From Planktotalea sp. (lineage in GTDB: Bacteria; Pseudomonadota; Alphaproteobacteria; Rhodobacterales; Rhodobacteraceae), in NCBI GenBank assembly GCA_965662135.1, contig CBFIGL010000013.1, forward strand, positions 11,353-75,352: a stretch of DNA of 64,000 nt. Reading direction: 5' to 3'. The position numbers and the translations under genes are program-made. Below are positions 6,019-54,660 of the stretch, piece after piece. The first letter of the stretch is position 1. Every line of letters starts with the position of its first letter. Below the pieces are notes generated by a model. The model was given only the letters and a program-made list of their open reading frames with translations. It made no database searches and was not told the DNA's origin.

Positions 6019-6019
6019 G

Positions 6020-6286
6020 ATGATCGCACTCGCACGCTTGCTGGTATTCGGGTTCCTTGGGCTATCTGTTGTCTACGTTTGTCTGTCGCTCTATTCGCGC
6101 TCTGTCCGCCGTGACAAGCTGGAAAAAGAGTGGGACGAAGAGGTCAGGGAAGGCGATCGCGAAGCCTTTGTGCAAGCGGGGCTGTTAGAGTATGATGGGT
6201 CCTTGCGCCGCAAGTTGATCCTTGGGGTCTATGTTGTCCCGATCAGTATCGTTTCGTTTATCATTTATGCCACGAATTTCATGTAA
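6020..6286 (+). CDS. Small 2-TM membrane protein
   Basis: 88 aa, two hydrophobic helices around a charged loop. Starts 1 nt after the upstream stop. Confidence 0.8.
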   Translation: MIALARLLVFGFLGLSVVYVCLSLYSRSVRRDKLEKEWDEEVREGDREAFVQAGLLEYDGSLRRKLILGVYVVPISIVSFIIYATNFM

Positions 6287-6299
6287 GGGAGCCTAATCA

Positions 6300-6920: not shown

Positions 6921-6942
6921 GTTTTGCCATTTGATACAATAG

Positions 6943-6978
6943 AAAAGCCCCCGCCGAGTTGTTCGGCGGGTGCTTTTT
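6943..6978. terminator. Bidirectional intrinsic terminator
   Basis: AAAAGC-CCCCGCCGA...TCGGCGGG-TGCTTTTT hairpin between convergent genes. Confidence 0.8.
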
Positions 6979-6996
6979 ATTTGGGGATCACAGTGC

Positions 6997-7869
6997 TTAC
7001 CGCTTGCCGTAATACAGGCCGACGACGTGTTCTGCTTGCGCAAAGAACAACCAGCGCGACGTCAATATACCTGCGATGTGGCACAGGACCGCTAAAAGCG
7101 CGAAGATATGACCAAAGGGCAGCAGCAAGAAGATCAGCGGCAGCGCAAAGCCCAGAACCATCGCAATCGCGCGTAGTTTGAAGGCGTGTTTGCGGCCAAC
7201 CACATGGATAAATTCGCGCATCAGGTAGTTGGTGCCGGTGTGCGGAGGTTCAAACGCTTTGACTTTGCCGATATGACCAAGGCCTGTTGCCGTTTCCATG
7301 TTTGTGCCAGAGGCGGCAAAGCGTCCGTCGCCCATGATCCAATAGGCGACTTGTATGCCTGCTGAAATGATTAGGAACGGAATTGCCAGCGTGATTTGAC
7401 CCGCGAGCAAAGCACCGCCTGTGATAGAAAGCGCCATGAACAGCGGGCTTGTCAGGGGCATATTCCAGCGCGGCACTGTCTTGAGCTGCGCGTAGATCAT
7501 CGACGTTGTGTAGACTGTTGCCAGCGACAAGATCGCGCCGATCCCACCGATAAGGCCCCAATGCTGCGCGAAAAACACGCGGCCAATACCGTAAATGCCC
7601 ATAACAACAAGGGCCGCGACTGCGCAGATGCCTTCGCGCGATAGCCAACTAGAGCGCCATTGGCTGAACGCCTTGATTGCGCGCTCAGGATGGCCAAGGT
7701 GAAAGGTTGAAAACAACAGACCACCGACCGCCAAAAGATAGGCAATTGCAAAGAAGACGAAAGCGACGAAGCCAGTGGAACCGGGCATGTTCAACCCAAG
7801 GAAAGCCAGTAGGCCAAAGCCAAGACCCGAGAGCGTGGTGAATAGAATAATCGACGGTGCTGGATGCAT
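6997..7869 (-). CDS. soeC: Sulfite dehydrogenase membrane anchor (DmsC/NrfD-like)
   Basis: Start reassigned to MHPAPSII (7869). HLGHPERA...QWRSSWLSRE and RWLFFAQAEH motifs. Follows soeAB. Confidence 0.85.
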   Translation of the reverse strand: MHPAPSIILFTTLSGLGFGLLAFLGLNMPGSTGFVAFVFFAIAYLLAVGGLLFSTFHLGHPERAIKAFSQWRSSWLSREGICAVAALVVMGIYGIGRVFFAQHWGLIGGIGAILSLATVYTTSMIYAQLKTVPRWNMPLTSPLFMALSITGGALLAGQITLAIPFLIISAGIQVAYWIMGDGRFAASGTNMETATGLGHIGKVKAFEPPHTGTNYLMREFIHVVGRKHAFKLRAIAMVLGFALPLIFLLLPFGHIFALLAVLCHIAGILTSRWLFFAQAEHVVGLYYGKR

Positions 7870-8642
7870 TAGTTCGCTCCTCCAGCTGAGTTGCCAGGTA
7901 GTTTGTCGAGCGCCTTGTCGAGCCAACCCAAAAAGCCGCCAGCGTCTTGCGCCACAGGTTCAAGGTAAGGCGCTAGAATGTCGAATTCTTCCATCGTGTC
8001 CTTGGGGCGTGGGGGCAAGTATTGGTTTACAGGTTTGGTGCCCATTTCTGGCATCAGATCGAAACCACCACGCTCGGCAACCAGTTTGCTGACGTCGGAG
8101 TTTTCATCACCCAAGTCGCCAAAGTGACGCGCGCCAGACGGGCATGTGCGCACGCAAGCTGGCTGGCGATCTTCTTCAGGCAAGTTCTCGTTGTAAATAC
8201 GATCCACGCAGAGCGTGCATTTCTTCATCACCTTCTCAGCCGCATCCATTTCGCGAGCGCCATACGGGCAAGCCCATGCGCACAATCCGCAACCGATGCA
8301 ATCTTGCTCGTTCACCAGAACGATGCCGTCCTCAACACGCTTATAGCTCGCGCCAGTGGGACAAACGGTGACGCAAGGTGCGTCTTCGCAGTGTAGGCAG
8401 GATTTCGGGAAGTGGATCAGCTGCGCCGCGCCTTCATCGGGTTGCACTTCGTAGCTGTGGACACGGTTGAGGAACGTTCCCGATGGATCGCCACCATATG
8501 GGTTTTGATCCGACAGAGGCGCGCCGTAGTTTTCGGTGTTCCAGCCTTTGCAGGACACAACGCAGGCGTGGCAGCCCACGCATGTATCAAGGTCGATAAC
8601 GAGGCCGAGTTTCTTCTGGGTGCTGGTGGGCAGTGTGGTCAT
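7869..8642 (-). CDS. soeB: Sulfite dehydrogenase 4Fe-4S subunit
   Basis: Four Cys clusters: CVGCHAC, CLHCEDAPC, CIGCGLC and KCTLC. Confidence 0.88.
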   Translation of the reverse strand: MTTLPTSTQKKLGLVIDLDTCVGCHACVVSCKGWNTENYGAPLSDQNPYGGDPSGTFLNRVHSYEVQPDEGAAQLIHFPKSCLHCEDAPCVTVCPTGASYKRVEDGIVLVNEQDCIGCGLCAWACPYGAREMDAAEKVMKKCTLCVDRIYNENLPEEDRQPACVRTCPSGARHFGDLGDENSDVSKLVAERGGFDLMPEMGTKPVNQYLPPRPKDTMEEFDILAPYLEPVAQDAGGFLGWLDKALDKLPGNSAGGAN

Positions 8643-8676
8643 GATCTGGCCTCTGCTTTGTTTTGTTGTGTTCGGG

Positions 8677-8722
8677 ACTGGGGCGCTGCCCCAGACCCCG
8701 GGATATTTATGGAGAAAGGAAA
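8677..8722. repeat. REP-like intergenic palindrome
   Basis: CTGGGGC-GCT-GCCCCAG hairpin followed by ACCCCGGGATATTT, between soeA and soeB. Confidence 0.55.
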
Positions 8723-8724
8723 CA

Positions 8725-11544
8725 TCATGGTTTGGTTTTCCACTTCAACTCGGACGGACCTGTGCCAACGGGAGATTTGATGGCGGGCATGGCGGGTTGG
8801 CTTTCGCTTGGTGGATTGGCCGCTTTCGCGATCTTCACACGCAGGTCGAACCATGCTGCTTGCCCGGTGATCGGATCAGAGTTTGACCAACGCAGACCAT
8901 CGCCCTTGGGTGGCATCAATTCGTGGATGAGGTGGTTGAGCAAGAAGCCTTTGGTTGCCTCTGGCGCATCCTCTTCCAAGGCCCACGCGCCTTTGCGTTT
9001 GCCGATCGCGTTCCATGTCCAGACCGTATTCGCATTCAGCGCGGCCATTTCCATGACAGGAACCGTGATCGAACCGTGTGTAGAGCTAACCGTTGCCCAA
9101 TCCTCATCCTTCAACCCATGCTTTTCCATCAGGTTTGTAGGTAGATAGAGCGGGTTGTGACCGTGAATTTGACGAAGCCAAGCGTTCTGGCTGCCCCAAG
9201 AATGATACATGGCCATCGGGCGTTGTGTCAGGGCGTGCACAGGGTATTCGTCCACATCGACGGCGCTGTCCTCAAACGGTTCGTACCAGATTGGCAGCGG
9301 ATCCATTGTCGCCTTGATCCGCTCGCGCAGATGCTCTGGCGGTTGACGCTCCCCATGCCCTTCAGCGGCGCGTTGGAACTTGCGCATAGGTTCGACGTAG
9401 AGCTGGAACAGATACGGCTCAGGCTTATCGATGATGCCCATGCCCACGGCCCACTCTTGGTAGGCCATGTTCCAAGGTTTGTAGTAATTCGCTCCCTCTG
9501 GGATGTGCTCTACAAAGAAGCCGCCATTCTCGATGTAGGCATCAAGCTGCGCTTCATTCGCCTCACCGCGTCCGTTTTGCAGACCGTTCTCGCCCATGCG
9601 CCAACCTGCAAGGGGGCCAATGCCCGGCTTGCGGATATGGTTGGTGATGTAGTCGGCGTAATCTGCGTATTTCTGCGATCCGTCTTCATTGATGAAGCCT
9701 GGCAAATCAAGACGCGCGCCTAACTCACAGAGCACCGATTGGAAGCCCCGTACATCGCGATCAGGCTCGATCACGGGCCAACGGATCGCGTCGGCAGCGG
9801 CATCCGCTTCGCAGATCGGGCGATCCAACAAAGAGATACAATCGTGACGCTCCAAATATGTCGTATCCGGCAGGATCAGGTCCGCATAAGCGACCATTTC
9901 AGAAGAATACGCATCGGAATAGATGATCCGTGGGATCACATATTCGCCGGTTTCCTCGTCCCTGTCCGTCAGCATATCAATGACGCCGCGCGTGTTCATC
10001 GAAGAGTTCCACGCCATATTCGCCATATACATGAACAGCGTGTCGATCTTGTAGGGATCACCCGCATGCGCGTTGGAAATGACCATGTGCATCATGCCAT
10101 GGGCGGACATGGGGTTGTCCCATGTGAATGCCTTGTCGATACGCGCGGCTGTGCCGTCTGGCTTGAGAGCAAGATCATCAGGACCATGGACGAAACCAAG
10201 GTGCGGACCGTCCAAAGGCTTGCCCGGTGTCACGCCATAGTGCGGCTTCGGGTGGATGGTCGCAGGCTTTGGATAAGGCGGTTTGAAACGGAAACCACCG
10301 GGGACTTCGACAGTGCCGAGCAAGATTTGCAAGACATGCAAAGAGCGGCAGGTTTGGAACCCGTTCGAGTGCGCAGAAATACCGCGCATGGAGTGGAAGC
10401 TCACAGGGCGACCCGTCATTTTGGAATGCGTCTGACCGCGGAAATCGGTCCATTCTTGATCCAGCTCAAAGCTTTCTTCAAACGCCACACGCGCGATTTC
10501 GTTGGCGATGCCGCGAATACGTTCGGCAGGGATGCCGCATCGCTCGGCTACTGCTTCGGGCGCGTAGTCCTCGGACATGTAACGCTCTGCCATCAGGTGG
10601 AAGACGGGCTTATGCGCCACGCCTGCATGACGATGTGTGGCGGACAGATCAGGGCGCACGCCTTTTTGATCGAAGGGTGTCAACTTGCCGGTGTTGCGAT
10701 CAATCACCAGCTCTTTGCCGTCCTCATCACGCATCAATAGGCCAGTTTCAGCATCAACCAGAACCGGCGCGTTGGTGTATTGTGCGAGGTACTCAAGGTC
10801 GATCTTACCCGCCTTCATCAACTCGTGCACAAGGGCGAGGATGAACAGACCATCCGTGCCGGGCGTGATGCCGACCCAATCGTCAGCGACGGCGTTATAG
10901 CCTGTGCGGATGGGGTTCACGCCAATCACGCGCGCACCACGTTCTTTGATCTTGCCAATGCCCATCTTGATGGGGTTGCTGTCGTGATCCTCTGCCACAC
11001 CAAAGAGCATAAACAGCTTTGTGTAATCCCAATCAGGTTGGCCAAATTCCCAGAACGCGCCGCCCATCGTGTAGATGCCTGCGGCGGCCATGTTCACGGA
11101 ACAGAACCCGCCGTGGGCCGCATAGTTTGGTGTGCCAAAGTGCTGCGCCCAAAAGCTGGTGAAGGACTGAGACTGATCGCGGCCTGTGAAGAACGCCAGT
11201 TTCTCAGGGTTCTCTGCACGAATAGGCGCAAGCCAATCGGTCGCGATTGTCAGCGCTTCTTCCCATGAAATCTCCTCAAACTCACCCGATCCACGTGGCC
11301 CTACACGCTTTAGCGGCGCTTTCAAACGCGATGGCGCGTTGACCTGCATGATGCCCGCAGACCCCTTGGCGCACAAAACGCCTTTGTTCACGGGATGGTC
11401 TTTGTTGCCTTCGATGTAGGCGACTTTGCCTTCTTTCATGTGTACATTGATGCCGCAACGACACGCACACATGTAGCAGGTGGTTTTACGCACCTCGTCA
11501 GAGACGTGGGGTGACAGGTCCAGTGTGGGTTGGTCTTTGGGCAT
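8725..11544 (-). CDS. soeA: Cytoplasmic molybdopterin sulfite dehydrogenase catalytic subunit
   Basis: TTCYMCACRC...LCAKG Fe-S motif, DMSO-reductase-family motifs, no Tat signal. Adjacent to xsc/pta as in Ruegeria pomeroyi. Confidence 0.88.
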   Translation of the reverse strand: MPKDQPTLDLSPHVSDEVRKTTCYMCACRCGINVHMKEGKVAYIEGNKDHPVNKGVLCAKGSAGIMQVNAPSRLKAPLKRVGPRGSGEFEEISWEEALTIATDWLAPIRAENPEKLAFFTGRDQSQSFTSFWAQHFGTPNYAAHGGFCSVNMAAAGIYTMGGAFWEFGQPDWDYTKLFMLFGVAEDHDSNPIKMGIGKIKERGARVIGVNPIRTGYNAVADDWVGITPGTDGLFILALVHELMKAGKIDLEYLAQYTNAPVLVDAETGLLMRDEDGKELVIDRNTGKLTPFDQKGVRPDLSATHRHAGVAHKPVFHLMAERYMSEDYAPEAVAERCGIPAERIRGIANEIARVAFEESFELDQEWTDFRGQTHSKMTGRPVSFHSMRGISAHSNGFQTCRSLHVLQILLGTVEVPGGFRFKPPYPKPATIHPKPHYGVTPGKPLDGPHLGFVHGPDDLALKPDGTAARIDKAFTWDNPMSAHGMMHMVISNAHAGDPYKIDTLFMYMANMAWNSSMNTRGVIDMLTDRDEETGEYVIPRIIYSDAYSSEMVAYADLILPDTTYLERHDCISLLDRPICEADAAADAIRWPVIEPDRDVRGFQSVLCELGARLDLPGFINEDGSQKYADYADYITNHIRKPGIGPLAGWRMGENGLQNGRGEANEAQLDAYIENGGFFVEHIPEGANYYKPWNMAYQEWAVGMGIIDKPEPYLFQLYVEPMRKFQRAAEGHGERQPPEHLRERIKATMDPLPIWYEPFEDSAVDVDEYPVHALTQRPMAMYHSWGSQNAWLRQIHGHNPLYLPTNLMEKHGLKDEDWATVSSTHGSITVPVMEMAALNANTVWTWNAIGKRKGAWALEEDAPEATKGFLLNHLIHELMPPKGDGLRWSNSDPITGQAAWFDLRVKIAKAANPPSESQPAMPAIKSPVGTGPSELKWKTKP

Positions 11545-11598
11545 GTCAGATATCTTTCTTGTTGGGCGTGCGAATTTTAGTGTGGGTGAAGCAGGCCA

Positions 11599-12351
11599 TT
11601 ATGACAAGCTTAACCGCAATAACCCGAAGGCGGATAGACCGCACAAAAGGGTCAGGCAGAACGGGCGATAATAGGGTTCCAATCGGGGCGTAAACAGCTT
11701 CATGCCTGCCCAAACCCCCAGCATGGAAGGAAGGGCAAAGGCGAGACCACGCAAAAAAGCGACTTGTGTCAGAACCCCGAACCAGATCAGCCAGAACATC
11801 GAAATGGCGGAGCTGAGGAAGAGGAATAGAACCAAGGCCGCACGCATTTGGCGCGCCGGGGTTTGGCTGGACAGAACATAAAGCGCGATGACCATGCCGC
11901 CCACGCTGGCGATGCCGGAAACTATGCCTGCGACAAGGCCCGTGATGTATGTGCCAGGTTTGGAGGCGAGCGCAGGAATTTGAATGCGCGCCAACTGTAG
12001 CGCGGCAAGCGTGATGATGATGCTGAGCGCGATCAACTTGGACAGATCAACGTCAATGCTGGTGGTCAGCGCAAGGCCGATAGGCGCGCCGATGCCGGAT
12101 GTGATGACAAGCGCATTGACCAGTTTGCGATCGGCGTCCTGCCAGCCCCCTTTGCCCATAAGCAAGCTTGCCGACATTTCCAAGAACCAACAGATCGGGA
12201 TCAACTGAACGGGTGGCAGGATCAACGCAGCACTTGCCATCACAAGGGCAGACAGGGCGAATCCCGAAAATCCGCGCACAAGACCCGCACAAAAGCAGAT
12301 CACTGCGAGGGTGATAATCTCGGTGACAGTGAGGCCCAGCAGCTCTGTCAT
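11599..12351 (-). CDS. tauE: Sulfite exporter TauE/SafE family
   Basis: AGLVRGFSGFA and GIVSGIASVGG repeats, about 8 TM, in the xsc-pta operon. Confidence 0.75.
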   Translation of the reverse strand: MTELLGLTVTEIITLAVICFCAGLVRGFSGFALSALVMASAALILPPVQLIPICWFLEMSASLLMGKGGWQDADRKLVNALVITSGIGAPIGLALTTSIDVDLSKLIALSIIITLAALQLARIQIPALASKPGTYITGLVAGIVSGIASVGGMVIALYVLSSQTPARQMRAALVLFLFLSSAISMFWLIWFGVLTQVAFLRGLAFALPSMLGVWAGMKLFTPRLEPYYRPFCLTLLCGLSAFGLLRLSLS

Positions 12352-13400
12352 ACGGTCTGCGCTTGTAAGACAGTCACAGCAATCATCGCTAGAACATCGC
12401 CCGCAGTGCAGCCGCGCGATAGGTCATTTGAAGGCTTGGCAAGACCTTGCAAGACAGGCCCGATCGCAACCGCGCCACCAAAACGCTGCGCCAGTTTATA
12501 GCCGATGTTACCTGCATCAAGGTTGGGGAAGATCAATACATTTGCGCTACCTTGCAAAGCACCACTTGGGGCTTTGGACGCGGCAACAGACGGGACAAGG
12601 GCAGCGTCCAGCTGCAACTCCCCATCGACAATCAAATCAGGGCGCGCAGCTTTCAACGCTTCTGTCGCCTCGCTTACCTTCGTGACGCGCTCATGCTTGG
12701 CAGAGCCGTGCGTAGAGAAAGACAGCATGCCAAGTTTCGGCGTCTCACCCACAAGCGCGGCAAAACTATCGGCGGCTTGCGATGCAATGCCGGCAAGTTC
12801 GTTTGCATCAGGATCGATCACCATACCGCAGTCAGAAAAGACCATCGCCGCGCGATCCAGCGGGTGATTTTCAGGTAAAATCATCAAGAAGAACGAGGAC
12901 ACCAAAGGCGCGCCCTTGGCTTTGCCTATCACGTGCAGCGTCGCGCGAACTGTGTCGGACGTCGTTGCAACTGCGCCGCCAATCGAGCCATCGGCGCGAC
13001 CGGTTTCAACTAGCAAGGCGGCAAACACCAAAGGGTCAAGCGTCGCTTTCTTCGCGAGCTCTAAAGACAGTCCCTTGTGGGCGCGAAGCTCGACGAAGCG
13101 TTCGGCGAGGGTGCCGAAAATTCTTGAATTTTCGGGGTCGTGCACGTCGACACCCGTCGGATCATCCAGATCAAACTTAGCCAGCGTGGCCTGAACATCA
13201 GCTTCAGGCCCAACAAGATGCGCTTTGTTGATAAGACCCGCATTTAAAGCAGTAACAGCAGCTTCGACAATGCGCGGATCGCTGCCTTCGGCAAAGGCAA
13301 TCGTTTTAGGGGCCGCCGCCGCCCGCGTCATCAAAGACGCGAGCGGCGGGAGCTTGTTTGCTTCTTCTAGCAAAGCGACAGGTTTTGCGTTGCCAGACAT
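12348..13400 (-). CDS. pta: Phosphate acetyltransferase
   Basis: FSDCG, MLSFSTHGSA, DGELQLDAAL, FPNLDAGNIGYK and DLSRGC motifs. Confidence 0.95.
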   Translation of the reverse strand: MSGNAKPVALLEEANKLPPLASLMTRAAAAPKTIAFAEGSDPRIVEAAVTALNAGLINKAHLVGPEADVQATLAKFDLDDPTGVDVHDPENSRIFGTLAERFVELRAHKGLSLELAKKATLDPLVFAALLVETGRADGSIGGAVATTSDTVRATLHVIGKAKGAPLVSSFFLMILPENHPLDRAAMVFSDCGMVIDPDANELAGIASQAADSFAALVGETPKLGMLSFSTHGSAKHERVTKVSEATEALKAARPDLIVDGELQLDAALVPSVAASKAPSGALQGSANVLIFPNLDAGNIGYKLAQRFGGAVAIGPVLQGLAKPSNDLSRGCTAGDVLAMIAVTVLQAQTV

Positions 13401-13406
13401 TCCCGA

Positions 13407-15185
13407 TTAGACGGTCTGGGGAACCATGTCGTCTGCGCTGATACCAGCAACAGAAACAGGCTTTTTCATCGCATCGCGGCGGAAAGGTTCACCTAGCTCT
13501 TGGTTGATCATGGCTTCGATCAGCGTTGTGATGCCGTTCTCCATCTGATCTTTGATCGCTTGATGTAGCGCTGCGGTCAGCTCGTCCTGTGTGCGTGCAA
13601 CCACGCCCTTCAGACCACATGCGTTCGCGATGCCAGCGTAGGAAACGCCCTCGTCCAGCTCTGTGCCAACGAAGTTATCATCGAACCAAAGGGTTGAGTT
13701 ACGCTTTTCCGCGCCCCACTGGTAGTTACGGAACACAACCTGTGTCATCGCAGGCCAGTCGCCGCGACCAATTGCTGTTAGCTCGTTTACCGCGATACCG
13801 AAAGCACCGTCGCCAGAAAAACCAACGACAGGCACGTCAGGGCAACCGATTTTTGCACCCGCAACCGCAGGCAGACCGTAGCCACAAGGACCAAACAGAC
13901 CCGGTGCTAGATACTTACGACCCGTATCGAAATCAGGGTAGGCGTTACCGATCGCACAGTTGTTGCCGATGTCGGAAGAAATGATCGCTTCACGCGGCAG
14001 AGCCGCCTGAATGGCGCGCCATGCCATACGTGGTGACATCCACTCTGGCTTGGCCGCGCGTGCGCGTTGGTTCCACGTCGTGCCCGGATCGTCCTGTTCT
14101 TCGGTCATAGAGGTCAGTTCTTGTGCCCAAGCCGACTTCTTCTGCGCGATGTTGGCTTCACGCTCTTTACGACCTGCATCACCTGCATCGTCAGACAAAT
14201 GCGCGAGAATACCGTTCGCAACTTTCGCAGCATCGCCAACGATCCCAACAGTGACCTTTTTGGTCAGACCGATGCGATCAGGGTTGATGTCGACCTGAAT
14301 GATCTTTGCGTCTGCTGGCCAGTACTCCATACCATAACCCGGCAATGTAGAGAACGGGTTAAGACGTGTGCCAAGGCACAGAACCACGTCTGCGTCTTTG
14401 ATCAATTCCATTCCTGCTTTGGACCCGTTGTAACCCAATGGACCTGCGAACAAGGGGTGTGAACCCGGAAACGCATCATTGTGCTGATAACCAACACAGA
14501 CAGGTGCGCTTAGACGCTCTGCCAGAACCTTGGAGGCGTCGATGCCGCCTTTGGACAAAACAACGCCTGCGCCGTTCAAGATAACCGGGTTCTTGGCCGC
14601 TGACAAAATCGCTGCAGCTTCCGCAACAGAGTTTGTACCACCGGGGGATGCTTCGAATTCAATTGGATCCGGGATTTCGATGTCAACAACCTGTGTCCAG
14701 AAGTCGCGCGGAATGTTGATCTGTGCAGGACCGGACAGACGCTTTGCCTGTGAAATCACCCGCGTCAGAACCTCGACAACGCGGGACGGGTCACGCACTT
14801 CTTCTTGGTAGGCAACCATGTCTTCGAACAGTTTCATCTGCTCGACTTCTTGAAAACCGCCCTGACCGATGGTCTTGTTCGCCGCCTGAGGCGTGACAAG
14901 CAAAAGAGGCGTGTGGTTCCAGTAAGCGGTCTTTACGGCTGTCACGAAGTTTGTGATGCCGGGGCCGTTCTGAGCAATCATCATGCTCATCTTGCCAGTG
15001 GCGCGCGTATAGCCGTCTGCCATCATGCCGGCGCTGCCTTCGTGCGCGCAATCCCAGAACTTGATGCCCGCTTTCGGGAAAATATCCGAGATCGGCATCA
15101 TAGCTGAACCGATGATCCCGAATGCGTGCTGAATACCGTGGCGTTGCAAGGACTTAACGAAAGCTTCTTCAGTGGTCATCTTCAT
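13407..15185 (-). CDS. xsc: Sulfoacetaldehyde acetyltransferase (ThDP)
   Basis: Start reassigned to MKMTTEEAFVK. GIIGSA, SSDIGNNC, GDGA...N ThDP motif, NYQWGAEKRN and LGEPFRRDAM. Confidence 0.95.
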   Translation of the reverse strand: MKMTTEEAFVKSLQRHGIQHAFGIIGSAMMPISDIFPKAGIKFWDCAHEGSAGMMADGYTRATGKMSMMIAQNGPGITNFVTAVKTAYWNHTPLLLVTPQAANKTIGQGGFQEVEQMKLFEDMVAYQEEVRDPSRVVEVLTRVISQAKRLSGPAQINIPRDFWTQVVDIEIPDPIEFEASPGGTNSVAEAAAILSAAKNPVILNGAGVVLSKGGIDASKVLAERLSAPVCVGYQHNDAFPGSHPLFAGPLGYNGSKAGMELIKDADVVLCLGTRLNPFSTLPGYGMEYWPADAKIIQVDINPDRIGLTKKVTVGIVGDAAKVANGILAHLSDDAGDAGRKEREANIAQKKSAWAQELTSMTEEQDDPGTTWNQRARAAKPEWMSPRMAWRAIQAALPREAIISSDIGNNCAIGNAYPDFDTGRKYLAPGLFGPCGYGLPAVAGAKIGCPDVPVVGFSGDGAFGIAVNELTAIGRGDWPAMTQVVFRNYQWGAEKRNSTLWFDDNFVGTELDEGVSYAGIANACGLKGVVARTQDELTAALHQAIKDQMENGITTLIEAMINQELGEPFRRDAMKKPVSVAGISADDMVPQTV

Positions 15186-46521: not shown

Positions 46522-46980
46522 TCATTCTACAAGGTGGAACCCCCGAAACTCTTTTACTGTCGACAGGCAAAGTAATGTCTTCATCTGGGCCACTGACGGG
46601 ATCAGTGTCAGCCTGTCGCGATACAACTGTTCGTAGTCTTCTGTGTTGCGTGCCGCTACTCGGATGAGGTAGTCAAACTCGCCCGAAATCAGGTGGCATT
46701 CCAGAATCTCTGGCATTTCACCAATGGCCGCCTCAAACGCCTGAATGTTCTCGCGTCGCTGACTGACCAGCTTGGCCTCGATAAAGACCTGAATTTCCAG
46801 CCCCACCTGCTTGCGGTTGAGCCGCGCTGCATAGTGCGAGATCTTTCCATCGACCTCCAGCATCTTGACTCGCCTGTGACAGGCCGAGAGCGACAACCCA
46901 ACCTGTTCGGACAGGCGTGCCATGGAGATGTGCCCGTCCTTTTGAAGGATGGAAAGAATGCGGATGTCCAGCCTATCCAC
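46522..46980 (-). CDS. Lrp/AsnC regulator
   Basis: LDIRILSILQKDG...VGLS.SAC.RRV and SGEFDY motifs. Confidence 0.93.
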   Translation of the reverse strand: MDRLDIRILSILQKDGHISMARLSEQVGLSLSACHRRVKMLEVDGKISHYAARLNRKQVGLEIQVFIEAKLVSQRRENIQAFEAAIGEMPEILECHLISGEFDYLIRVAARNTEDYEQLYRDRLTLIPSVAQMKTLLCLSTVKEFRGFHLVE

Positions 46981-47581: not shown

Positions 47582-49126
47582 ATGAGAAACTTTTCCAAGG
47601 TGGCAGCTCTGGCTGCTCTCGCCATGCTGGCCGTGTCCGCGCCTGCCATGGCTCAATCACTAGATCAGACCATCAACGAGGGCTTTGCCAACGCGACGGG
47701 CTGGTTCGTCAACTTGATCTTCAGCCCCTTCCCCGGAACCACATTCCCGTGGATCGTGATGTGGCTGGTCATCGCGGCAACGGTATTTACCCTTTATTTC
47801 GGCTTTATCCAGTTCCGTGCCTTCCCGCATTCGATCTCGTTGGTCAAAGGCGATTACTCCGACCCCAACGACGCCGGCGAAGTCAGCCACTTCCAAGCAC
47901 TGGCAACGGCGCTCTCGGGCACCGTCGGCCTTGGCAACATCGCCGGTGTGGCCGTTGCTGTCGGTATTGGTGGGCCTGGTGCAACATTCTGGATGATCCT
48001 CGCGGGCCTTATGGGGATGGCATCGAAATTCACTGAATGTACGCTGGGTGTGAAATATCGGAATGAATACGACGACGGCACCGTCTCGGGCGGACCGATG
48101 TATTACATGACAAAGGGCTTCGCCGAGCGCGGCCTGCCCGCGGGCAAGTTCATGGCCGTCCTGTTCTCGATCTTCTGTATTCTCGGTGCCTTGGGCGGCG
48201 GCAACATGTTCCAGGCCAACCAGGCACACGCCCAGATTTCCAATGTGGTTGGCGATTACCCGGGCTGGATTACCGGGCTGGTATTCGCGGGTATCGTCTT
48301 TGCCGTGATCGTTGGCGGTCTGAAATCTATCGCCAAGGTGACGGAGAAAGTCGTGCCGATCATGGGCGTGCTTTACGTTCTGACCGCTCTGGTCATCCTG
48401 ATCATGAACTACAACATGATCGGATGGGCTTTTGGTGAGATTTTCGTTGGTGCCTTCACCGGAGCCGGCGTTGCAGGCGGGATGGTCGGCGCTTTGATCC
48501 AGGGCTTTAAACGCGCCGCTTTCTCGAACGAAGCTGGCGTTGGTTCGGCTGCAATCGCCCACTCGGCGGTGCGCACCAAAGAGCCGATCACCGAAGGCTT
48601 TGTTTCTCTGCTCGAGCCGTTCATCGACACAGTTGTGATCTGCACCATGACCGCACTGGTGATCATCATCACAGGTCAGCTAGTCTCCGATCCCAACACG
48701 GGCCTCTATCTGCTCGACGAAGGCGCCTCGACGATCCAGACAGTTGAGGGAAACAAAGGTGTCGCACTGACATCTGCGGCCTTCTCTTCCGCGATACCGT
48801 TCTTCAAGTACATCTTGGCGATCGCGGTGATCCTTTTTGCCTTCTCAACCATGATCAGCTGGTCCTACTACGGCCTTAAGGCTTGGACATTCCTCTTTGG
48901 CGAGGGTCAGGGCAAAGAGCTGGCGTTCAAGATCATCTTCTGCATCTTCGTTGTCATCGGTGCCTCGGCGAGCCTCGGACCGGTTATCGACTTCTCTGAT
49001 GCGGCGATCTTCGCCATGGCCGTGGTCAACATCGTGGCGCTCTACTTCCTGATGCCTGTGGTCAAGGGTGAGCTCGACAGCTACCTGTCGCGACTCAAGT
49101 CCGGCGAAATCAAGAAGTTCCACTAA
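47582..49126 (+). CDS. Alanine/glycine:cation symporter (AGCS)
   Basis: GTVGLGNIAGVA, GGPGA.FWM, GGPMYY, FSNEAG.GS and FIDT.VIC motifs. Confidence 0.95.
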   Translation: MRNFSKVAALAALAMLAVSAPAMAQSLDQTINEGFANATGWFVNLIFSPFPGTTFPWIVMWLVIAATVFTLYFGFIQFRAFPHSISLVKGDYSDPNDAGEVSHFQALATALSGTVGLGNIAGVAVAVGIGGPGATFWMILAGLMGMASKFTECTLGVKYRNEYDDGTVSGGPMYYMTKGFAERGLPAGKFMAVLFSIFCILGALGGGNMFQANQAHAQISNVVGDYPGWITGLVFAGIVFAVIVGGLKSIAKVTEKVVPIMGVLYVLTALVILIMNYNMIGWAFGEIFVGAFTGAGVAGGMVGALIQGFKRAAFSNEAGVGSAAIAHSAVRTKEPITEGFVSLLEPFIDTVVICTMTALVIIITGQLVSDPNTGLYLLDEGASTIQTVEGNKGVALTSAAFSSAIPFFKYILAIAVILFAFSTMISWSYYGLKAWTFLFGEGQGKELAFKIIFCIFVVIGASASLGPVIDFSDAAIFAMAVVNIVALYFLMPVVKGELDSYLSRLKSGEIKKFH

Positions 49127-49161
49127 ATGCGGTACCCGCCCCGAAACAGGGTGTGACACTG

Positions 49162-49194
49162 ACTAAGCCGCCGAACGTTTCGGCGGCTTAGTTT
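49162..49194 (+). terminator. Intrinsic terminator after AGCS gene
   Basis: ACTAAGCCGCCGAA-CGT-TTCGGCGGCTTAGT-TT. Confidence 0.85.
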
Positions 49195-49884
49195 CGTTTC
49201 GGTGTTTTGTGAAAACTGTCATCTCTCACCCCAACACCGACAAACCTTAGACGGAGCTGACATTCGTTTTTCGGACTTCGCTGACGCAGCATTTTCCTGC
49301 AGTCGCGGCACATGTGTTGTTGCAACGCAGCGAGTGTCGCCAATGTGGCCATTCATGAGCGTCGTTTTGAGTGTAACCGAGACCGTGCTTTCGCGCGGGC
49401 GATTCCAACAGTTCAGACGTGGGCAAAGCGCCATTTCGCTGCGCGTTCCTGACAGTTTAGATTGAGGCGCATAGCGAATTTTATCGATGAAAGGCGCATA
49501 TTTAGTAGCTGCAATCTTGAGCAAGAGGACAACGTGTTCGTCGTAAAATCAGCTAGATCGCACAAGGTGTATAGAACGTGATACAACCAATATCAGGCGG
49601 TAACCCGGCTCCACATTCAGTCGGAAAGCGATTTTCACCACGCGATGGGGCAATACCCGTTCGCACAGTACTTCGTTTCTTCAAATAGACAGGCCGCGAC
49701 ATATTGATATCGCACGGCGATAACCCCCTTTTGGCGGCCAGCTCAGATTGTCTAGACGTAGATTTGCTCGTTTTGGTCGCAAAACCGACGGATCAATCGA
49801 AGGCTTTCAGATAGGTGGTTGCTAATCTAGCATAAGGTCGTGCGATATTTGGCCGTACATTCACACAACGAAAGACCAGATTGA

Positions 49885-50376
49885 ATGAAGAGACTTGCCC
49901 TTGATGCAGCAGACATCCGCATTCTCAGTGCGCTTCAGCAGCATGGGCAATTGAGCAAAGCCAAGCTAGCCGAGATTAGCGGTCTTTCCGCGACACCGTG
50001 CTGGGCCCGACTGTCCAGATTGAAAGCGGGCGGATATATTCAAGGTTATCATGCCGATATTGAACTGGGCCGACTGGCTGATTTCGCCCAAGTGATTGTG
50101 ACAGTTTCCCTAAGTCGCCATCGAAAGGCTGATTTTGAACGCTTTGAGGCTTTCATCAACAGCCGCGATGAGATCATTGATTGCATCGCCACTGGCGGCG
50201 GGGTCGATTACATCATGAAGGTCATCAGCCCCACCCTTGCCGCGTTTCAAGATCTGATGGAAGAGTTCCATGCCCAAGATCTTGGGATTGATCGCTACAT
50301 GACTCACTTTGCGACGCGACAGGTGAAATCGGGCATGCCGAACATCGCAAAATTGGCGGCTGCAAAGCCGAAATAG
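49885..50376 (+). CDS. Lrp/AsnC regulator
   Basis: LDAADIRIL...GLSATPCW.R and TGGGVDY motifs. Confidence 0.9.
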   Translation: MKRLALDAADIRILSALQQHGQLSKAKLAEISGLSATPCWARLSRLKAGGYIQGYHADIELGRLADFAQVIVTVSLSRHRKADFERFEAFINSRDEIIDCIATGGGVDYIMKVISPTLAAFQDLMEEFHAQDLGIDRYMTHFATRQVKSGMPNIAKLAAAKPK

Positions 50377-50540
50377 TCAATCCGGCCCAAACAGTCCTGT
50401 TACGGCCAGAAAAACGGCCCGCTTGGTCCGAGAATTCAGAATCTTCAGACCACATTCGCGGTCTGTCCTGGACTACATCTCGCAAAGATTTTGACAGTTC
50501 TTGATCATAGCGATCACGGACAAAACGGGAGGACGTTCCA

Positions 50541-51680
50541 ATGCAAGCAGAAGATTTCGGTTTCGGCACACAGATCCGCAAGTCGCCCTATTTTGACGCC
50601 ACTGTGCGTTGGGGCGCACAAGGGTTTTCCGTATATAACCACATGTATATCCCGCGTGATTTCGGTGATCCGGCGCAGAACTTCTGGAACCTCGTGAACG
50701 ATGCTATTCTGTGTGATGTTGCCGTTGAACGGCAGGTTGAAATCACAGGGCCTGACGCTGCCAAATTCACCCAGATGCTGACCTGCCGTGATCTGTCCAA
50801 GATGGCCGTGGGCCAGTGCAAATACATCCTGATCACCAACGCGGATGGTGGCATTTTGAACGACCCGATCCTGCTGCGTCTTGCAGAAAACCATTTCTGG
50901 ATTTCCCTGGCTGACAGCGACATCCTCCTATGGGCGCAGGGTGTCGCGGTCAATTCTGGCCTTGATGTCACGATTGGCGAGCCCGATGTGTCCCCGCTGC
51001 AATTGCAAGGTCCCAAGTCCGGCGAGATCATGCGTGCGCTGTTTGGCGACGAAATTATGGACCTGCGCTACTACTGGCTGCGCGAAGTTGAATTAGACGG
51101 CATCCCTCTGATCGTGTCCCGCACCGGCTGGTCGAGTGAACTGGGCTATGAAATTTACCTGCGTGACGGGTCCAAAGGCGATCTGCTGTGGGAGACCATC
51201 ATGGCCGCAGGTCTGGCATTTGGCCTGAAGCCTGGGCACACTTCGTCTATCCGCCGCATCGAAGGTGGGATGTTGTCGTATCACGCAGATGCCGACATGA
51301 GCACCAATCCTTATGAGCTTGGTTTTGACCGTCTGGTGAACCTCGACATGGAGGCTGATTTCATTGGCAAAGCAGCGTTGCGACGCATTAAGGACGAAGG
51401 CGTCAGCCGCAAACAGATCGGCCTGATCATCGACGGTGATCCCCTCACCGGGCCGAACACAACATTCTGGGAAATCAATTCAGATGGCGAGGCAATCGGT
51501 AAAGTCACATCCGCCGTTTATTCCCCACGTTTGGAGCAGAATATCGCGTTGGCCATGGTTTCAGCTGAACATGCAAACATCGGTGCACAGGTCGAGGTCG
51601 TTACGAAATCTGGCCCCATCCGCGCAACAATCTGCGAGCGTCCGTTCTATGATCCCAAAAAGCAAATTGCAGCCGCGTAA
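50541..51680 (+). CDS. GcvT-superfamily THF-dependent demethylase, DmdA paralog
   Basis: VYNHM, DVAVERQVEI.GPDA, GGILNDP, W.SLADSD, RTGWS.ELGYEIY and RIEGGMLSY motifs. Confidence 0.85.
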   Translation: MQAEDFGFGTQIRKSPYFDATVRWGAQGFSVYNHMYIPRDFGDPAQNFWNLVNDAILCDVAVERQVEITGPDAAKFTQMLTCRDLSKMAVGQCKYILITNADGGILNDPILLRLAENHFWISLADSDILLWAQGVAVNSGLDVTIGEPDVSPLQLQGPKSGEIMRALFGDEIMDLRYYWLREVELDGIPLIVSRTGWSSELGYEIYLRDGSKGDLLWETIMAAGLAFGLKPGHTSSIRRIEGGMLSYHADADMSTNPYELGFDRLVNLDMEADFIGKAALRRIKDEGVSRKQIGLIIDGDPLTGPNTTFWEINSDGEAIGKVTSAVYSPRLEQNIALAMVSAEHANIGAQVEVVTKSGPIRATICERPFYDPKKQIAAA

Positions 51681-51707
51681 CGGCCTATCACACGAAAGAA
51701 AACCGAT

Positions 51708-52157
51708 ATGTCAGACCTCGCGATCGAACTGCATTGGCAGCGCGCTACACCTATTTTTGAAACCGGTGCATATTCGAACGAGCACACAGTGCAGTATAAC
51801 AACCGCTACGATCTGCTTGTGGATTCCGCCCCTGATTGGGGCGGAAATCCAGACAATACAAATCCCGAACAGGCCCTAGCCTCGGCGTTGTCCAGTTGCC
51901 AAATGATGACCTTTCTCGCGCTGGCCGCAAAAGCGGGTTGGCCCGTGGCGAGTTACCACGATTACGCCGAAGCCCACTTGGGCAAGAACCCCAAAGGTCA
52001 GATGTCGGTGACGCGGATTGACCTTCATCCAGTGGTGCGTTTCGACACCGGCTTTTCGGTAAACGACGGGGAGCTGGCGCAGATGCAGGACCGCGCGCAC
52101 CGCTATTGCTTTATCGCGAACACCTTGGCCGACAGTGTCGAAATAAACATTCTTTAG
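51708..52157 (+). CDS. OsmC/Ohr family protein
   Basis: NPEQ.L...LSSC.M.TFL and AH.YCFIANT, the two-Cys pattern. Confidence 0.9.
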   Translation: MSDLAIELHWQRATPIFETGAYSNEHTVQYNNRYDLLVDSAPDWGGNPDNTNPEQALASALSSCQMMTFLALAAKAGWPVASYHDYAEAHLGKNPKGQMSVTRIDLHPVVRFDTGFSVNDGELAQMQDRAHRYCFIANTLADSVEINIL

Positions 52158-52176
52158 AACTCAAAAGGAATACCCC

Positions 52177-52977
52177 ATGACCACATCTGACACCCTGCTG
52201 CGCGATCTGGATGCGAGCGGCATATTGCGCCTGACCTTGAACGATGTGGCGCGCCGCAATGCCTTGTCCGAGGCGATGCTGGCGGCACTAGGCGCGGCGT
52301 TTACAGATGCAGGGGCAGACCCAAAGGTGAGGGTCATTGTTTTGGCAGCCAATGGCCCTGCTTTCTGTGCGGGTCATGACCTCAAGGAGATGACCGCCGG
52401 GCGCAGGCACGAGGATGGGGGAAAGGCGTATTTTGCACATGTCATGGCGATGTGCGCAGACGTGATGCAAGGCATCGTGAATTGCCCCAAACCCGTGATC
52501 GCCGAAGTCACTGGCGTGGCCACTGCCGCAGGCTGCCAACTGGTTGCAAGCTGTGATCTGGCCGTTGCAGCGGATACGGCACAGTTCAGCACACCGGGCG
52601 TGCATATCGGGCTGTTCTGTTCCACGCCCATGGTGGCGCTGTCGCGCAATGTGGCAGACAAACACGCGATGGAGATGTTGCTGACGGGTGATATGACGTC
52701 AGCCGAACGGGCTGCCGAGATCGGTCTTGTGAACCGTGTTGTGGCCCTCGAGGCACTGCAAGAAACAACGATGGAAATGGCGTGCAAGATTGCGTCGAAG
52801 TCCAGCATGACGCTCGCAACAGGCAAGCGTGCCTATTACACGCAGCGCGAAATGGCGCTGTCCGACGCTTACGATTATGCCTCCGGTGTGATGGTCGACA
52901 ACATGCTGGCGCAGGATGCCGAAGAAGGCATCGGTGCGTTCATTGAAAAGCGCGCGCCCCAATGGCAGGATGCCTGA
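52177..52977 (+). CDS. Enoyl-CoA hydratase/isomerase
   Basis: AFCAGHDLKE, ATAAGCQLVASCD, PGV.IGLFC and AF.EKR.P motifs. Confidence 0.92.
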   Translation: MTTSDTLLRDLDASGILRLTLNDVARRNALSEAMLAALGAAFTDAGADPKVRVIVLAANGPAFCAGHDLKEMTAGRRHEDGGKAYFAHVMAMCADVMQGIVNCPKPVIAEVTGVATAAGCQLVASCDLAVAADTAQFSTPGVHIGLFCSTPMVALSRNVADKHAMEMLLTGDMTSAERAAEIGLVNRVVALEALQETTMEMACKIASKSSMTLATGKRAYYTQREMALSDAYDYASGVMVDNMLAQDAEEGIGAFIEKRAPQWQDA

Positions 52978-52980
52978 GCC

Positions 52981-54645
52981 ATGAGCGCGAACCCCTACAA
53001 TACCGATCTGGACCGTAATCCTGCAAACCATCAGCCGTTGACGCCGCTGGCATTCTTGGAACGCGCGGCCTCCGTCTTTCCTGATCACACAGCGATTGTG
53101 CATGGTGCGTTGCGGCGCAATTATGCTACCTTTTATGCGCGGTCACGTCAGTTGGCATCTGCTTTGGCACAGCAGGGAATCGGACGCGGTGACACGGTGT
53201 CGGCCTTGCTGGCCAATACGCCTGCGATGCTTGAATGCCATTACGGTGTTCCCATGTGCGGTGGTGTCCTGCATTCCGTAAACACCCGCCTCGATGCATC
53301 TGTGATTGCGTTTCAGCTGGACCATGCAATGTCAAAAATCGTCATCGTGGACCGAGAGTTCATGCCGCTGATGCAGGACGCGCTGGCGCTGTCCACAGTG
53401 ACCCCACTGGTTATCCAATACGACGATGCTGAATTCAGTGGGCCTGAGACCGCCACAGATGCTCAGGATTTTGAGTCCTTCTTGTCGATGGGTGACCCTG
53501 AATTTGACTGGCTGATGCCGCTGGACGAATGGGACGCGATTTCGATCAATTACACTTCGGGGACCACGGGCGATCCCAAGGGAGTGGTGTCGCATCACCG
53601 AGGGGCTTACCTTCTGGCGCAGGGCAACGCGCTGACCACGTCGATGGCCAAGCACGCGGTCTACCTCTGGACGCTACCGATGTTTCACTGCAACGGATGG
53701 TGTTTCCCCTGGACACTCTCGGCTATTATCGGGACGCACGTCTGCCTGCGGCAAGTGCGGGCAGAACCGATGTGGGCCGCCTTGGCGGATGAGGGCGTCA
53801 CACACTTGTGCGGCGCGCCCATTGTGATGTCTCTGATGATCTCTGCCCTCGAGGAAGAGAAACGCAAGCTCGATCAAACCGTGCAGTTCTTCACGGCTGC
53901 CGCCCCACCACCGGAAAAACTGCTGGCCGATATGAAGATCGCGGGCTTTGATGTGACGCATCTTTATGGGCTGACAGAAACCTACGGGCCAGCTGTGGTG
54001 AATGACTGGCATCCAGACTGGTCTGATCTGCCGCCCGCCCAGCAGGCCACGCTGAAATCGCGCCAAGGCGTGCGCTATCTGCCGCTTGAGGGATTGGATG
54101 TGCTGGATCCGGAAACCATGCAGCCCGTACCGCACGACGGGAAAACCATGGGCGAAGTGATGTTTCGAGGCAACGTCGTCATGAAAGGCTATTTTCGCAA
54201 TCCCAAAGCCACGCAAGAGGCCTTTGCTGGCGGCTGGTTCCATTCCGGCGATCTGGGTGTGCGGCATCACGACGGCTATATCCAGCTCAAGGACCGATCC
54301 AAGGACATCATCATTTCGGGTGGCGAAAATATTTCGTCCATCGAGGTGGAAGAAGCTCTCTATCGTCACCCCGCAGTCGCGATTGTAGCGGTGGTCGCGA
54401 TGCCCCATGATAAATGGGGCGAAACGCCTTGCGCCTTTGTGGAATTGGCCAAAGGTAAAACTGTGGATGCCGCCAGTTTACGCGCTTGGTGCAAGGACCA
54501 GCTTGCGCCCTACAAAGTGCCGGGACAGTTCGTGTTTACGGCAATCCCACGCACGTCCACCGGCAAAATCCAGAAATTTGTCCTGCGCGATCAGGCCCGC
54601 GAGATCGCGCAAAACGCAAATTCAGGTCAAATGACCCCGGCTTGA
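52981..54645 (+). CDS. Acyl-CoA synthetase, DmdB1-like
   Basis: LDRNPANHQPLTPL.FLER, YTSGTTGDPKG, PMFHCNGW, YGLTE, SGDLG and TSTGKIQK motifs. Confidence 0.9.
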   Translation: MSANPYNTDLDRNPANHQPLTPLAFLERAASVFPDHTAIVHGALRRNYATFYARSRQLASALAQQGIGRGDTVSALLANTPAMLECHYGVPMCGGVLHSVNTRLDASVIAFQLDHAMSKIVIVDREFMPLMQDALALSTVTPLVIQYDDAEFSGPETATDAQDFESFLSMGDPEFDWLMPLDEWDAISINYTSGTTGDPKGVVSHHRGAYLLAQGNALTTSMAKHAVYLWTLPMFHCNGWCFPWTLSAIIGTHVCLRQVRAEPMWAALADEGVTHLCGAPIVMSLMISALEEEKRKLDQTVQFFTAAAPPPEKLLADMKIAGFDVTHLYGLTETYGPAVVNDWHPDWSDLPPAQQATLKSRQGVRYLPLEGLDVLDPETMQPVPHDGKTMGEVMFRGNVVMKGYFRNPKATQEAFAGGWFHSGDLGVRHHDGYIQLKDRSKDIIISGGENISSIEVEEALYRHPAVAIVAVVAMPHDKWGETPCAFVELAKGKTVDAASLRAWCKDQLAPYKVPGQFVFTAIPRTSTGKIQKFVLRDQAREIAQNANSGQMTPA

Positions 54646-54660
54646 TAGGCCGGGGCTTTT
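54635..54660 (+). terminator. Intrinsic terminator
   Basis: CCCCGGC...GCCGGGG-CTTTT overlapping the stop codon. Confidence 0.7.

Follow-up and report, generated by a model that had tools for sequence, protein, structure and literature searches.

Why should a bacterium that already encodes DmdA, the demethylase of dimethylsulfoniopropionate (DMSP), carry a second DmdA-like gene in a cassette whose other members depart from the DMSP pathway? The question is raised by five genes at 49885-54645 of a 64,000-nucleotide window (the whole stretch of DNA analysed here, contig C13, positions 11353-75352) from the 3.1 Mb, 89% complete genome of a Planktotalea species, a marine bacterium of the Roseobacter group. 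They encode an Lrp-type regulator, a GcvT-family demethylase, an OsmC-like protein, a crotonase and an acyl-coenzyme A (CoA) ligase. From sequence comparisons, the cassette is read here as an Lrp-regulated, self-contained catabolic operon whose substrate would be a methylated, DMSP-related organosulfur zwitterion (a sulfonium or sulfoxonium acid), probably not DMSP itself, and this reading is given a probability of about one half. The predicted pathway would depend on tetrahydrofolate (THF) and CoA and would include a thiol-redox step; the substrate class and every chemical step are predictions.

The demethylase and canonical DmdA

Families were assigned by Pfam and NCBIfam profile searches with curated cut-offs. 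The best family for the window demethylase was the DMSP demethylase NF009133, with 376.2 bits against a cut-off of 410 (34 short; E 1e-112). The canonical DmdA of the same genome, on contig C6, scored 679.6 bits with this profile and is followed directly by a gene of the acrylyl-CoA reductase family (TIGR02823, 449 bits), forming a dmdA-acuI locus. Identity of the window protein was 38% to its own C6 DmdA and 40% to the Pelagibacter ubique DmdA of structure 3tfh (E 7e-82), and its orthologs are 36-40% identical to ratified DmdA. The motifs quoted in the first-pass annotation (VYNHM, DV..ERQV, NDP and W.SLAD.D), together with the N-terminal FGFGTQIRKSPYF, are all present in the translation. The GcvT tri-domain fold with conserved folate-site residues is present, and an AlphaFold (AF2) model with a predicted local distance difference test score (pLDDT) of 95.5 matched 3tfh with template modelling (TM) scores of 0.94/0.96 and a root mean square deviation (rmsd) of 1.5 Å, clearly better than it matched any T-protein.

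A quick maximum-likelihood (ML) tree of 52 sequences from a 50%-identity representative library, with support given by the Shimodaira-Hasegawa-like approximate likelihood ratio test (SH-aLRT) and with the ratified R. (Ruegeria) pomeroyi and P. ubique DmdA sequences left out, placed the window demethylase in a clade (SH-aLRT 100) outside that formed by the DmdA of its own genome and the representatives scoring 443-479 bits (SH-aLRT 97). Other DmdA-like groups, at 44-54% identity, scored below 410 bits against NF009133, except for one representative at 423. Because it lies below the family cut-off and outside the canonical clade, the protein is, by score and phylogeny, a DmdA paralog in an orthogroup of its own, sister to DmdA and not DmdA itself, as the first-pass annotation had proposed.

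The distribution of this orthogroup was surveyed in one genome per genus for 200 genera of the family, at a match threshold of E<=1e-60. It was found in 27 genera, or about 1 in 7 Rhodobacterales-family genera, and is sharply bounded: members are 65-94% identical and the next matches reach at most 49%. Most carriers also have a canonical DmdA (36-40% identical), and in four genomes the orthogroup protein was the sole match. The orthogroup is common in marine metagenomes; the nearest named relative of the source genome is a Sulfitobacter metagenome-assembled genome (MAG), and its copy of the demethylase-like protein is 99% identical. As a separate observation, the source genome has 15 GcvT-family matches, a large repertoire for a small genome, most of them fused proteins of 810-1030 amino acids resembling dimethylglycine dehydrogenase or sarcosine oxidase.

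Residues were compared between 72 orthologs, 10 canonical DmdAs and 10 other DmdA-like representatives. Positions that are otherwise invariant in DmdA and the DmdA-like groups are replaced in all 72 orthologs (Y48F, W58C, C/A233H, P234T and G248H), and F48, I56, C58, H233, T234 and H248 are invariant and specific to the orthogroup. The folate-site core (D108, E204 and Y206) and the aromatic residue W197 are invariant in the orthologs. The genetic setting differs as well: in Roseobacter, dmdA forms an operon with acuI and is controlled by DmdR (PMC12992908), whereas the cassette has no acuI and carries an Lrp-type gene. The R. pomeroyi gene SPO1648, described as a 'non-functional DmdA-like protein' (PMC12992908), was considered as the same gene and rejected, since the adjacent SPO1649 is IbeA-like and neither an OsmC nor an Lrp gene follows.

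A large part of the marine flux of sulfur and carbon passes through DMSP and its relatives, and the sulfur diverted from climate-relevant dimethylsulfide (DMS) is gauged from dmdA counts. Given the profile E-value and the identity to ratified DmdA reported above, surveys that use profile E-values or thresholds of about 40% identity may count the orthogroup as dmdA, or find it borderline.

Partner genes, conservation and relatives

The five plus-strand open reading frames (ORFs) lie in series, at the position given at first pass, with spacers of 164, 27, 19 and 3 nucleotides, and the co-oriented genes do end in a terminator-like hairpin, as had been noted at first pass; the hairpin overlaps the ligase stop codon, and the tail CTTTTGGTGT follows its stem (Table 1). 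The short gaps of 27, 19 and 3 nucleotides and the single terminator suggest one transcript.

The ligase has the architecture of an AMP-forming acyl-CoA synthetase and belongs to PRK08162 (887 bits against a cut-off of 677); with the DmdB equivalog NF005426, which is of the DmdB2 type, it reached 306.8 bits against 822. Besides the cassette copy, two further relevant ligases are encoded in the source genome: a PRK08162 copy on contig C11 that is 50% identical to the cassette enzyme, and a DmdB2-like protein on contig C25 (795 bits with NF005426). Immediately after tauA-tauB-tauC, Ruegeria alba and R. marina have a ligase gene whose product is 57% identical to the cassette ligase. The position downstream of tauABC is occupied in R. 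pomeroyi by dmdB1 (SPO0677) (PMC5395565, PMC9723723), and by synteny the tauC-adjacent Ruegeria ligase would be the ortholog of SPO0677. In a quick tree the cassette ligases formed their own clade (SH-aLRT 95) beside it. The cassette enzyme is thus placed by phylogeny as a paralog of the DmdB1-type methylmercaptopropionate (MMPA)-CoA ligase. Its identification as DmdB1 itself was rejected, the tauC-adjacent ligase being a different paralog in a separate clade.

The crotonase had been called an enoyl-CoA hydratase, a name that does not survive comparison with the canonical crotonase of the source genome: both catalytic glutamates are missing, GGGCE being replaced by AAGCQ and QPE by TPG. The AAGCQ and TPG positions are conserved in 41 crotonase orthologs, and His67 (in the AGHD motif) and six cysteines are also conserved. 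Because both glutamates are missing, hydration in the manner of DmdD or AcuH is unlikely. The protein scored 396.4 bits with PRK08139 (NF006008; cut-off 313), its best structural matches were Mycobacterium smegmatis 3myb (254 bits) and human ECHDC3 2vx2 (228 bits), and it has the ECHDC3 family motifs AAGCQL and GLFCSTP. Loss of the glutamates is a family trait. The cassette protein is set apart within that family as a specialised paralog that shares 55-64% identity with the housekeeping PRK08139 copies. The housekeeping paralog of the source genome (contig C16, 19894-20649) is 58% identical and likewise lacks the hydratase glutamates. PRK08139 copies of 45-64% identity turned up in 80 of the 401 Pseudomonadota genomes sampled. 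They often stand between genes for a divergent 4HBT thioesterase and a CoA-binding (CoA_binding_2) protein, sometimes near rplM, and not near a ligase; the crotonase and OsmC tallies include one unpublished genome with weak crotonase and OsmC matches only, on which no particular claim depends. The 4HBT thioesterase, the ECHDC3-type crotonase and the CoA_binding_2 protein make up a conserved three-gene module in their own right, which includes the bacterial counterpart of human ECHDC3. The cassette offers a handle on the function of the ECHDC3 crotonases, the human mitochondrial protein among them, and of the VCA0330 branch of OsmC proteins.

To that branch the third protein belongs. It has a Pfam OsmC domain (59.6 bits), and it falls far below the subfamily cut-offs for OsmC (TIGR03562, 31.3 against 85.8 bits) and Ohr (TIGR03561, 26.4 against 88.85 bits), so its earlier naming as an OsmC peroxidase was an over-call. 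Its best structural match is 2d7v, the uncharacterised VCA0330. All 34 orthologs compared have Cys64 and Cys134; the protein is a member of the VCA0330/Ta0195 branch and a presumed thiol-redox partner.

The regulator has an N-terminal helix-turn-helix (HTH) domain (HTH_24, 54 bits) and a C-terminal AsnC-type ligand-binding domain (AsnC_trans_reg, 44 bits), and lies under the cut-off of the E. coli-type Lrp equivalog (87 against 233 bits). The spacer between lrp and the demethylase gene keeps conserved blocks across 31 loci, even with saturation at the third codon positions of the genes. It contains a TTGACA element, repeated GGNCC-type half sites and a GGGAGGA ribosome-binding site, and a promoter/operator is inferred to lie there; a consensus promoter scan made no call in this spacer, and an Rfam scan of the window returned no riboswitch match.

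Synteny was counted in other species of Rhodobacterales, at the 80 best loci of the 443 matched in a contig scan. All five genes were found in identical order at 54 of the 80. The most constant partner was Lrp, directly upstream of the GcvT gene at 75. Among the partial cassettes, OsmC alone was absent from 4-5 loci, a few had lost the ligase or the ligase and crotonase, and 5-8 consisted of Lrp and the demethylase with the other three genes absent. Flanking genes differed among loci, and no conserved transporter or other informative neighbour was found around the cassette. Since the order is kept at 54 loci and the Lrp-GcvT pair at 75 while the flanks vary, the arrangement is, on this synteny, not a chance adjacency.

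Between genera, amino acid identity was 85-98% and codon positions 1 and 2 were 87-99% identical, with only 47-70% identity at third positions, a pattern that indicates strong purifying selection on the cassette genes. Recent horizontal transfer was rejected as the cause of the 93-98% protein identity seen across genera, because of the same third-codon divergence. On Phaeobacter inhibens plasmid pP30_b (NZ_CP010619, 7250-13978), the cassette lies between two tyrosine recombinase genes with an IS3 element adjacent, as if the block could be mobilised in one piece. In Ruegeria marina at least four copies of the cassette were seen, several of them at contig ends.

Orthologs of the demethylase outside the Alphaproteobacteria are 77-78% identical and have the same orthogroup-specific residues. 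Two genomes of one non-alphaproteobacterial genus (G609 and G654) have the genes for the orthologous demethylase and for Lrp next to those of a PRK08139 crotonase and a PRK08162 ligase, both of which share only 47-51% identity with their cassette counterparts and belong to separate clades. A divergent lipoamide-dehydrogenase-like (Lpd-like) disulfide reductase (NF004939, 542 bits) is encoded between these genes, and OsmC is absent there. Lrp lies directly upstream of the demethylase gene at the non-alphaproteobacterial loci L168 and L169. In another genome (G110), purU and genes for an Lpd-like reductase, an OsmC-like protein, a crotonase and a ligase lie beside a C-terminal GcvT-like fragment at a contig edge. 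The Lpd-like flavoprotein ORFs at L156 (1570-3072, minus strand) and L168 (10255-11631, plus strand) are divergently placed beside the crotonase-ligase pair, and an ORF of about 354 amino acids with no Pfam or NCBIfam match is a conserved neighbour in the non-alphaproteobacterial clusters.

A Thiolinea-labelled MAG (locus L085) has a different set of partners. Here Lrp and a demethylase of 86% identity are followed by three same-strand genes (8281-12736) for an SBP56 family protein, a SCO1/SenC-MauG fusion and a SCO1/SenC-thioredoxin (AhpC) fusion. Methanethiol oxidase (mtoX) clusters, as reported by Eyice and colleagues in 2018, are said to be composed like this three-gene set.

More distant DmdA-like genes stand in other settings. 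On plasmid NZ_CP036516 of Lichenihabitans psoromatis (4892-14969), a DmdA-like gene of 56% identity lies between metF and purU-folD, which fits a producer of 5-methyl-THF. Its neighbours encode an aminotransferase, a flavin adenine dinucleotide (FAD) oxidoreductase and an amino-acid ATP-binding cassette (ABC) transporter, and the host is lichen-associated and terrestrial; the locus suggests a methylated amino-acid-type substrate, outside the sea. Plasmid NZ_CP127166 of Marivivens sp. LCG002 (5975-12136) carries genes for a LysR regulator, a DmdA-like protein, an AMP-binding ligase, an acyl-CoA dehydrogenase and dmdD, and appears to hold a complete plasmid-borne operon of the DMSP-demethylation type. 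Its DmdA-like protein is 43% identical to the window protein and below the DmdA cut-off, and the record does not name it as DmdA.

In the window, the cassette is flanked on its 5' side by a PrpD-family gene, a second Lrp-type regulator and a Na+:alanine symporter, and on its 3' side by a sugar-acid and ABC-transporter operon on the opposite strand. The second Lrp/AsnC gene is divergent from that of the AgcS-type symporter. Elsewhere the cassette does not have this pair as a neighbour, so the two genes probably form an alanine-uptake unit of their own. The non-coding stretch of 758 bp upstream of lrp is unusually long; its sole ORF is a weak antisense frame of 101 amino acids, for which no family match was found.

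Table 1 Features of the cassette and its upstream region, in window coordinates
Feature	Position	Strand	Basis
Second Lrp/AsnC regulator	46522-46980	-	
AgcS-type Na+:alanine symporter	47582-49126	+	
Non-coding stretch upstream of lrp, 758 bp	49127-49884		
Lrp/AsnC-family transcriptional regulator, 163 aa (amino acids)	49885-50376	+	Pfam HTH_24, HTH_AsnC-type, AsnC_trans_reg
lrp-demethylase intergenic region, likely promoter/operator for the four enzyme genes	50377-50540	+	Conserved blocks, 31-locus alignment
TTGACA element	50491-50496		
DmdA-like GcvT-family protein, 379 aa, predicted THF-dependent methyltransferase	50541-51680	+	GCV_T + GCV_T_C
OsmC-fold two-cysteine protein, 149 aa, VCA0330/Ta0195 type, presumed thiol-redox partner	51708-52157	+	Pfam OsmC
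Crotonase-fold protein, 266 aa, ECHDC3/PRK08139 family	52177-52977	+	ECH_1, PRK08139 equivalog
AMP-forming acyl-CoA synthetase, 554 aa, PRK08162 family	52981-54645	+	AMP-binding + AMP-binding_C
Intrinsic-terminator-like hairpin at operon end	54635-54655	+	9-bp stem, 7 G-C pairs, 3-nt loop, T-rich tail

Proposed pathway and alternative readings

In the proposed pathway, the DmdA-sister enzyme would transfer one methyl group from an onium centre to tetrahydrofolate, yielding 5-methyl-THF and a methylthio- or methylsulfinyl-type carboxylate, and the DmdB1-paralog ligase would convert the demethylated acid to its CoA thioester. The glutamate-less crotonase would put its oxyanion hole to a use other than hydration: most plausibly it would eliminate or cleave off the sulfur substituent beside the thioester in an enolate-based reaction, so that no acyl-CoA dehydrogenase would be needed. 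The two-cysteine OsmC-like protein would then trap or reduce a reactive sulfur leaving group or mixed disulfide, a role that may be taken in other lineages by the lipoamide-dehydrogenase-like disulfide reductase. Methanethiol would be the end product of the sulfur branch. A methyl-sulfur substrate is favoured because the ligase is a DmdB1 paralog and because of the link to a methanethiol-oxidase-type cluster. The suggestion that OsmC might act on a sulfur intermediate finds indirect backing, as far as a sulfur-related role goes, in the relatives' disulfide reductase and in the methanethiol-oxidase cluster.

Several points pull the other way and lower the weight that can be placed on this pathway. 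The five genes are not strictly interdependent, because OsmC, the crotonase or the ligase is absent at some loci; the methanethiol-oxidase-type cluster was seen in one MAG; and that the substituted residues 48, 58, 233, 234 and 248 line the substrate pocket is an assumption. A dehydrogenase could be supplied by unlinked genes, and a literature search of limited scope found no reaction for ECHDC3. In the SAR92 group, moreover, DmdAs that are only 38-40% identical to ratified DmdA are functional, and the enzymes of the cluster dmdA-acuH-dmdB-dmdC were shown to be active on DMSP (PMC10746254), so DMSP cannot be dismissed as the substrate on low identity alone.

The existence of such functional DmdAs at about 40% identity makes a second, divergent DMSP demethylation route (DMSP to MMPA to MMPA-CoA) a serious rival, if on balance a doubtful one. 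Under it, the crotonase would eliminate methanethiol to give acryloyl-CoA, or unlinked DmdC and DmdD/AcuH would finish the pathway, with OsmC guarding against by-products. Such a route would account for the DMSP demethylase being the best-scoring family, only 34 bits under its cut-off, for a modelled fold nearly identical to that of DmdA, for the close DmdB1 paralogy of the ligase and for the methanethiol-oxidase cluster. It would also suit the SAR92 genes, clustered as they are with a hydratase and dmdB, the four sampled genomes whose sole match at E<=1e-60 is of this type, without a canonical DmdA, and the retention of W197, a residue tied to DMSP binding in PMC7487153 (with an inferred numbering offset). 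Yet most carriers keep a canonical DmdA as well, residues invariant across DmdA and the DmdA-like groups are replaced, and the extreme purifying selection would be unusual for a redundant isozyme. Real DMSP operons, moreover, are unlike a cassette that has a non-hydratase crotonase and no DmdC, and the regulator is of the Lrp type rather than the DmdR that controls dmdA in Roseobacter (PMC12992908).

A methylated nitrogen compound (a betaine or N-methyl amino acid), the resulting acid of which would be processed by the CoA enzymes with no sulfur chemistry, is an unlikely substrate. Lrp/AsnC regulators usually sense amino acids, and this idea gains from the amino-acid ABC transporter, aminotransferase and FAD oxidoreductase beside the Lichenihabitans relative, from the Na+:alanine symporter upstream of the window cassette and from the genome's many GcvT-family genes, mostly fused and dimethylglycine-dehydrogenase-like. 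The symporter, however, is not conserved beside the cassette, and the MMPA-CoA ligase paralog, the two-cysteine protein, the relatives' disulfide reductase and the methanethiol-oxidase cluster all speak for sulfur. Among characterised proteins, the nearest relative is a sulfonium demethylase, and we know of no direct THF-dependent demethylation of a quaternary amine by the GcvT/DmdA-type family, which counts further against nitrogen. It is more improbable still that the genes are mere neighbours, Lrp-GcvT forming one unit and OsmC-crotonase-ligase a separate housekeeping or stress unit. The loci with Lrp and GcvT alone, those without OsmC, and the widespread housekeeping PRK08139 crotonases beside a thioesterase and CoA-binding protein would agree with such a split, but the gaps of 27, 19 and 3 nucleotides before a single terminator, the order kept amid variable flanks, the mobilisation of the block as a unit and the re-association of the same families with an orthologous demethylase in another class argue for a functional set.

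Within the preferred reading of a non-DMSP organosulfur acid, two candidate compounds are suggested by gaps in the literature. Gonyol, named beside them at first pass, would be a further candidate substrate. R. pomeroyi releases methanethiol from dimethylsulfonioacetate (DMSA), which DmdA does not accept, by an unknown route (PMC7221440), and demethylation of dimethylsulfoxonium propionate (DMSOP) is an open question (PMC10686828); the operon is a candidate for both. A more specific and speculative proposal, which we hold to be improbable as it stands, is that the operon serves to demethylate the sulfoxonium compound DMSOP, or else a dimethylsulfonium acid that is oxidised or in some other way distinct from DMSP, DMSA being an example. 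In the DMSOP version, the change of Trp58 to Cys and the new His and Thr side chains in the pocket would accommodate S=O. Once demethylated and activated with CoA, DMSOP would become 3-(methylsulfinyl)propionyl-CoA, from which the crotonase would eliminate methanesulfenate, leaving acryloyl-CoA, and the OsmC-like protein, or the Lpd-like reductase elsewhere, would reduce the sulfenate to methanethiol. The polar substitutions in the pocket would thereby make sense, as would the requirement for a two-electron thiol reductant. If true, it would add a new branch to the marine sulfur cycle and assign the first reaction to an ECHDC3-type crotonase.

Comparison with known systems

DmdA-like paralogs are a kind already known. 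They include SAR11_1265, which lies beside metF and for which a further demethylation was proposed (PMC3160333), SPO1648 (PMC12992908) and a 'non-DmdA' clade (PMC7487153). These have the same fold and form sister families, and none is described with the operon analysed here. A literature search of limited scope found no paper in which the operon, its partner genes or its occurrence among bacteria are described.

The cassette and the DMSP pathway of R. pomeroyi and P. ubique, DmdA-DmdB-DmdC-DmdD/AcuH (PMC5395565), start alike, with a GcvT-fold THF demethylase of the DmdA radiation. Both have a DmdB1-related AMP-forming ligase and a crotonase-fold enzyme, and they occur in the same marine bacteria. 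The cassette differs in that its demethylase lies outside the DmdA clade, its ligase is a DmdB1 paralog and unlike DmdB2, DmdC is missing, the crotonase lacks its glutamates, an OsmC-like protein is added and Lrp takes the place of DmdR. The earlier view that the cassette mirrors the DMSP operon can therefore be kept for the demethylase and ligase paralogs; as there is no DmdC, the mirror is not a full one. The SAR92 cluster dmdA-acuH-dmdB-dmdC (PMC10746254) and the Marivivens operon come closer in one respect, since there too a DmdA-like gene of about 40% identity heads a ligase/crotonase operon. Both include an acyl-CoA dehydrogenase gene and a gene for a true hydratase (acuH or dmdD); in the cassette neither is present, and OsmC is there instead.

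The ECHDC3/PRK08139 family (2vx2, 3myb) includes the cassette crotonase as a member, but as a specialised paralog in another gene setting. The Ohr/OsmC peroxidases share with the third protein the OsmC fold and two cysteines. In work from 2010 by Cussiol and colleagues, Ohr/OsmC thiol peroxidases were reportedly reduced by lipoyl groups and lipoamide dehydrogenase, and relatives of the operon carry an adjacent lipoamide-dehydrogenase-like reductase. Unlike those peroxidases, the cassette protein lies in the VCA0330/Ta0195 branch, far under both subfamily cut-offs.

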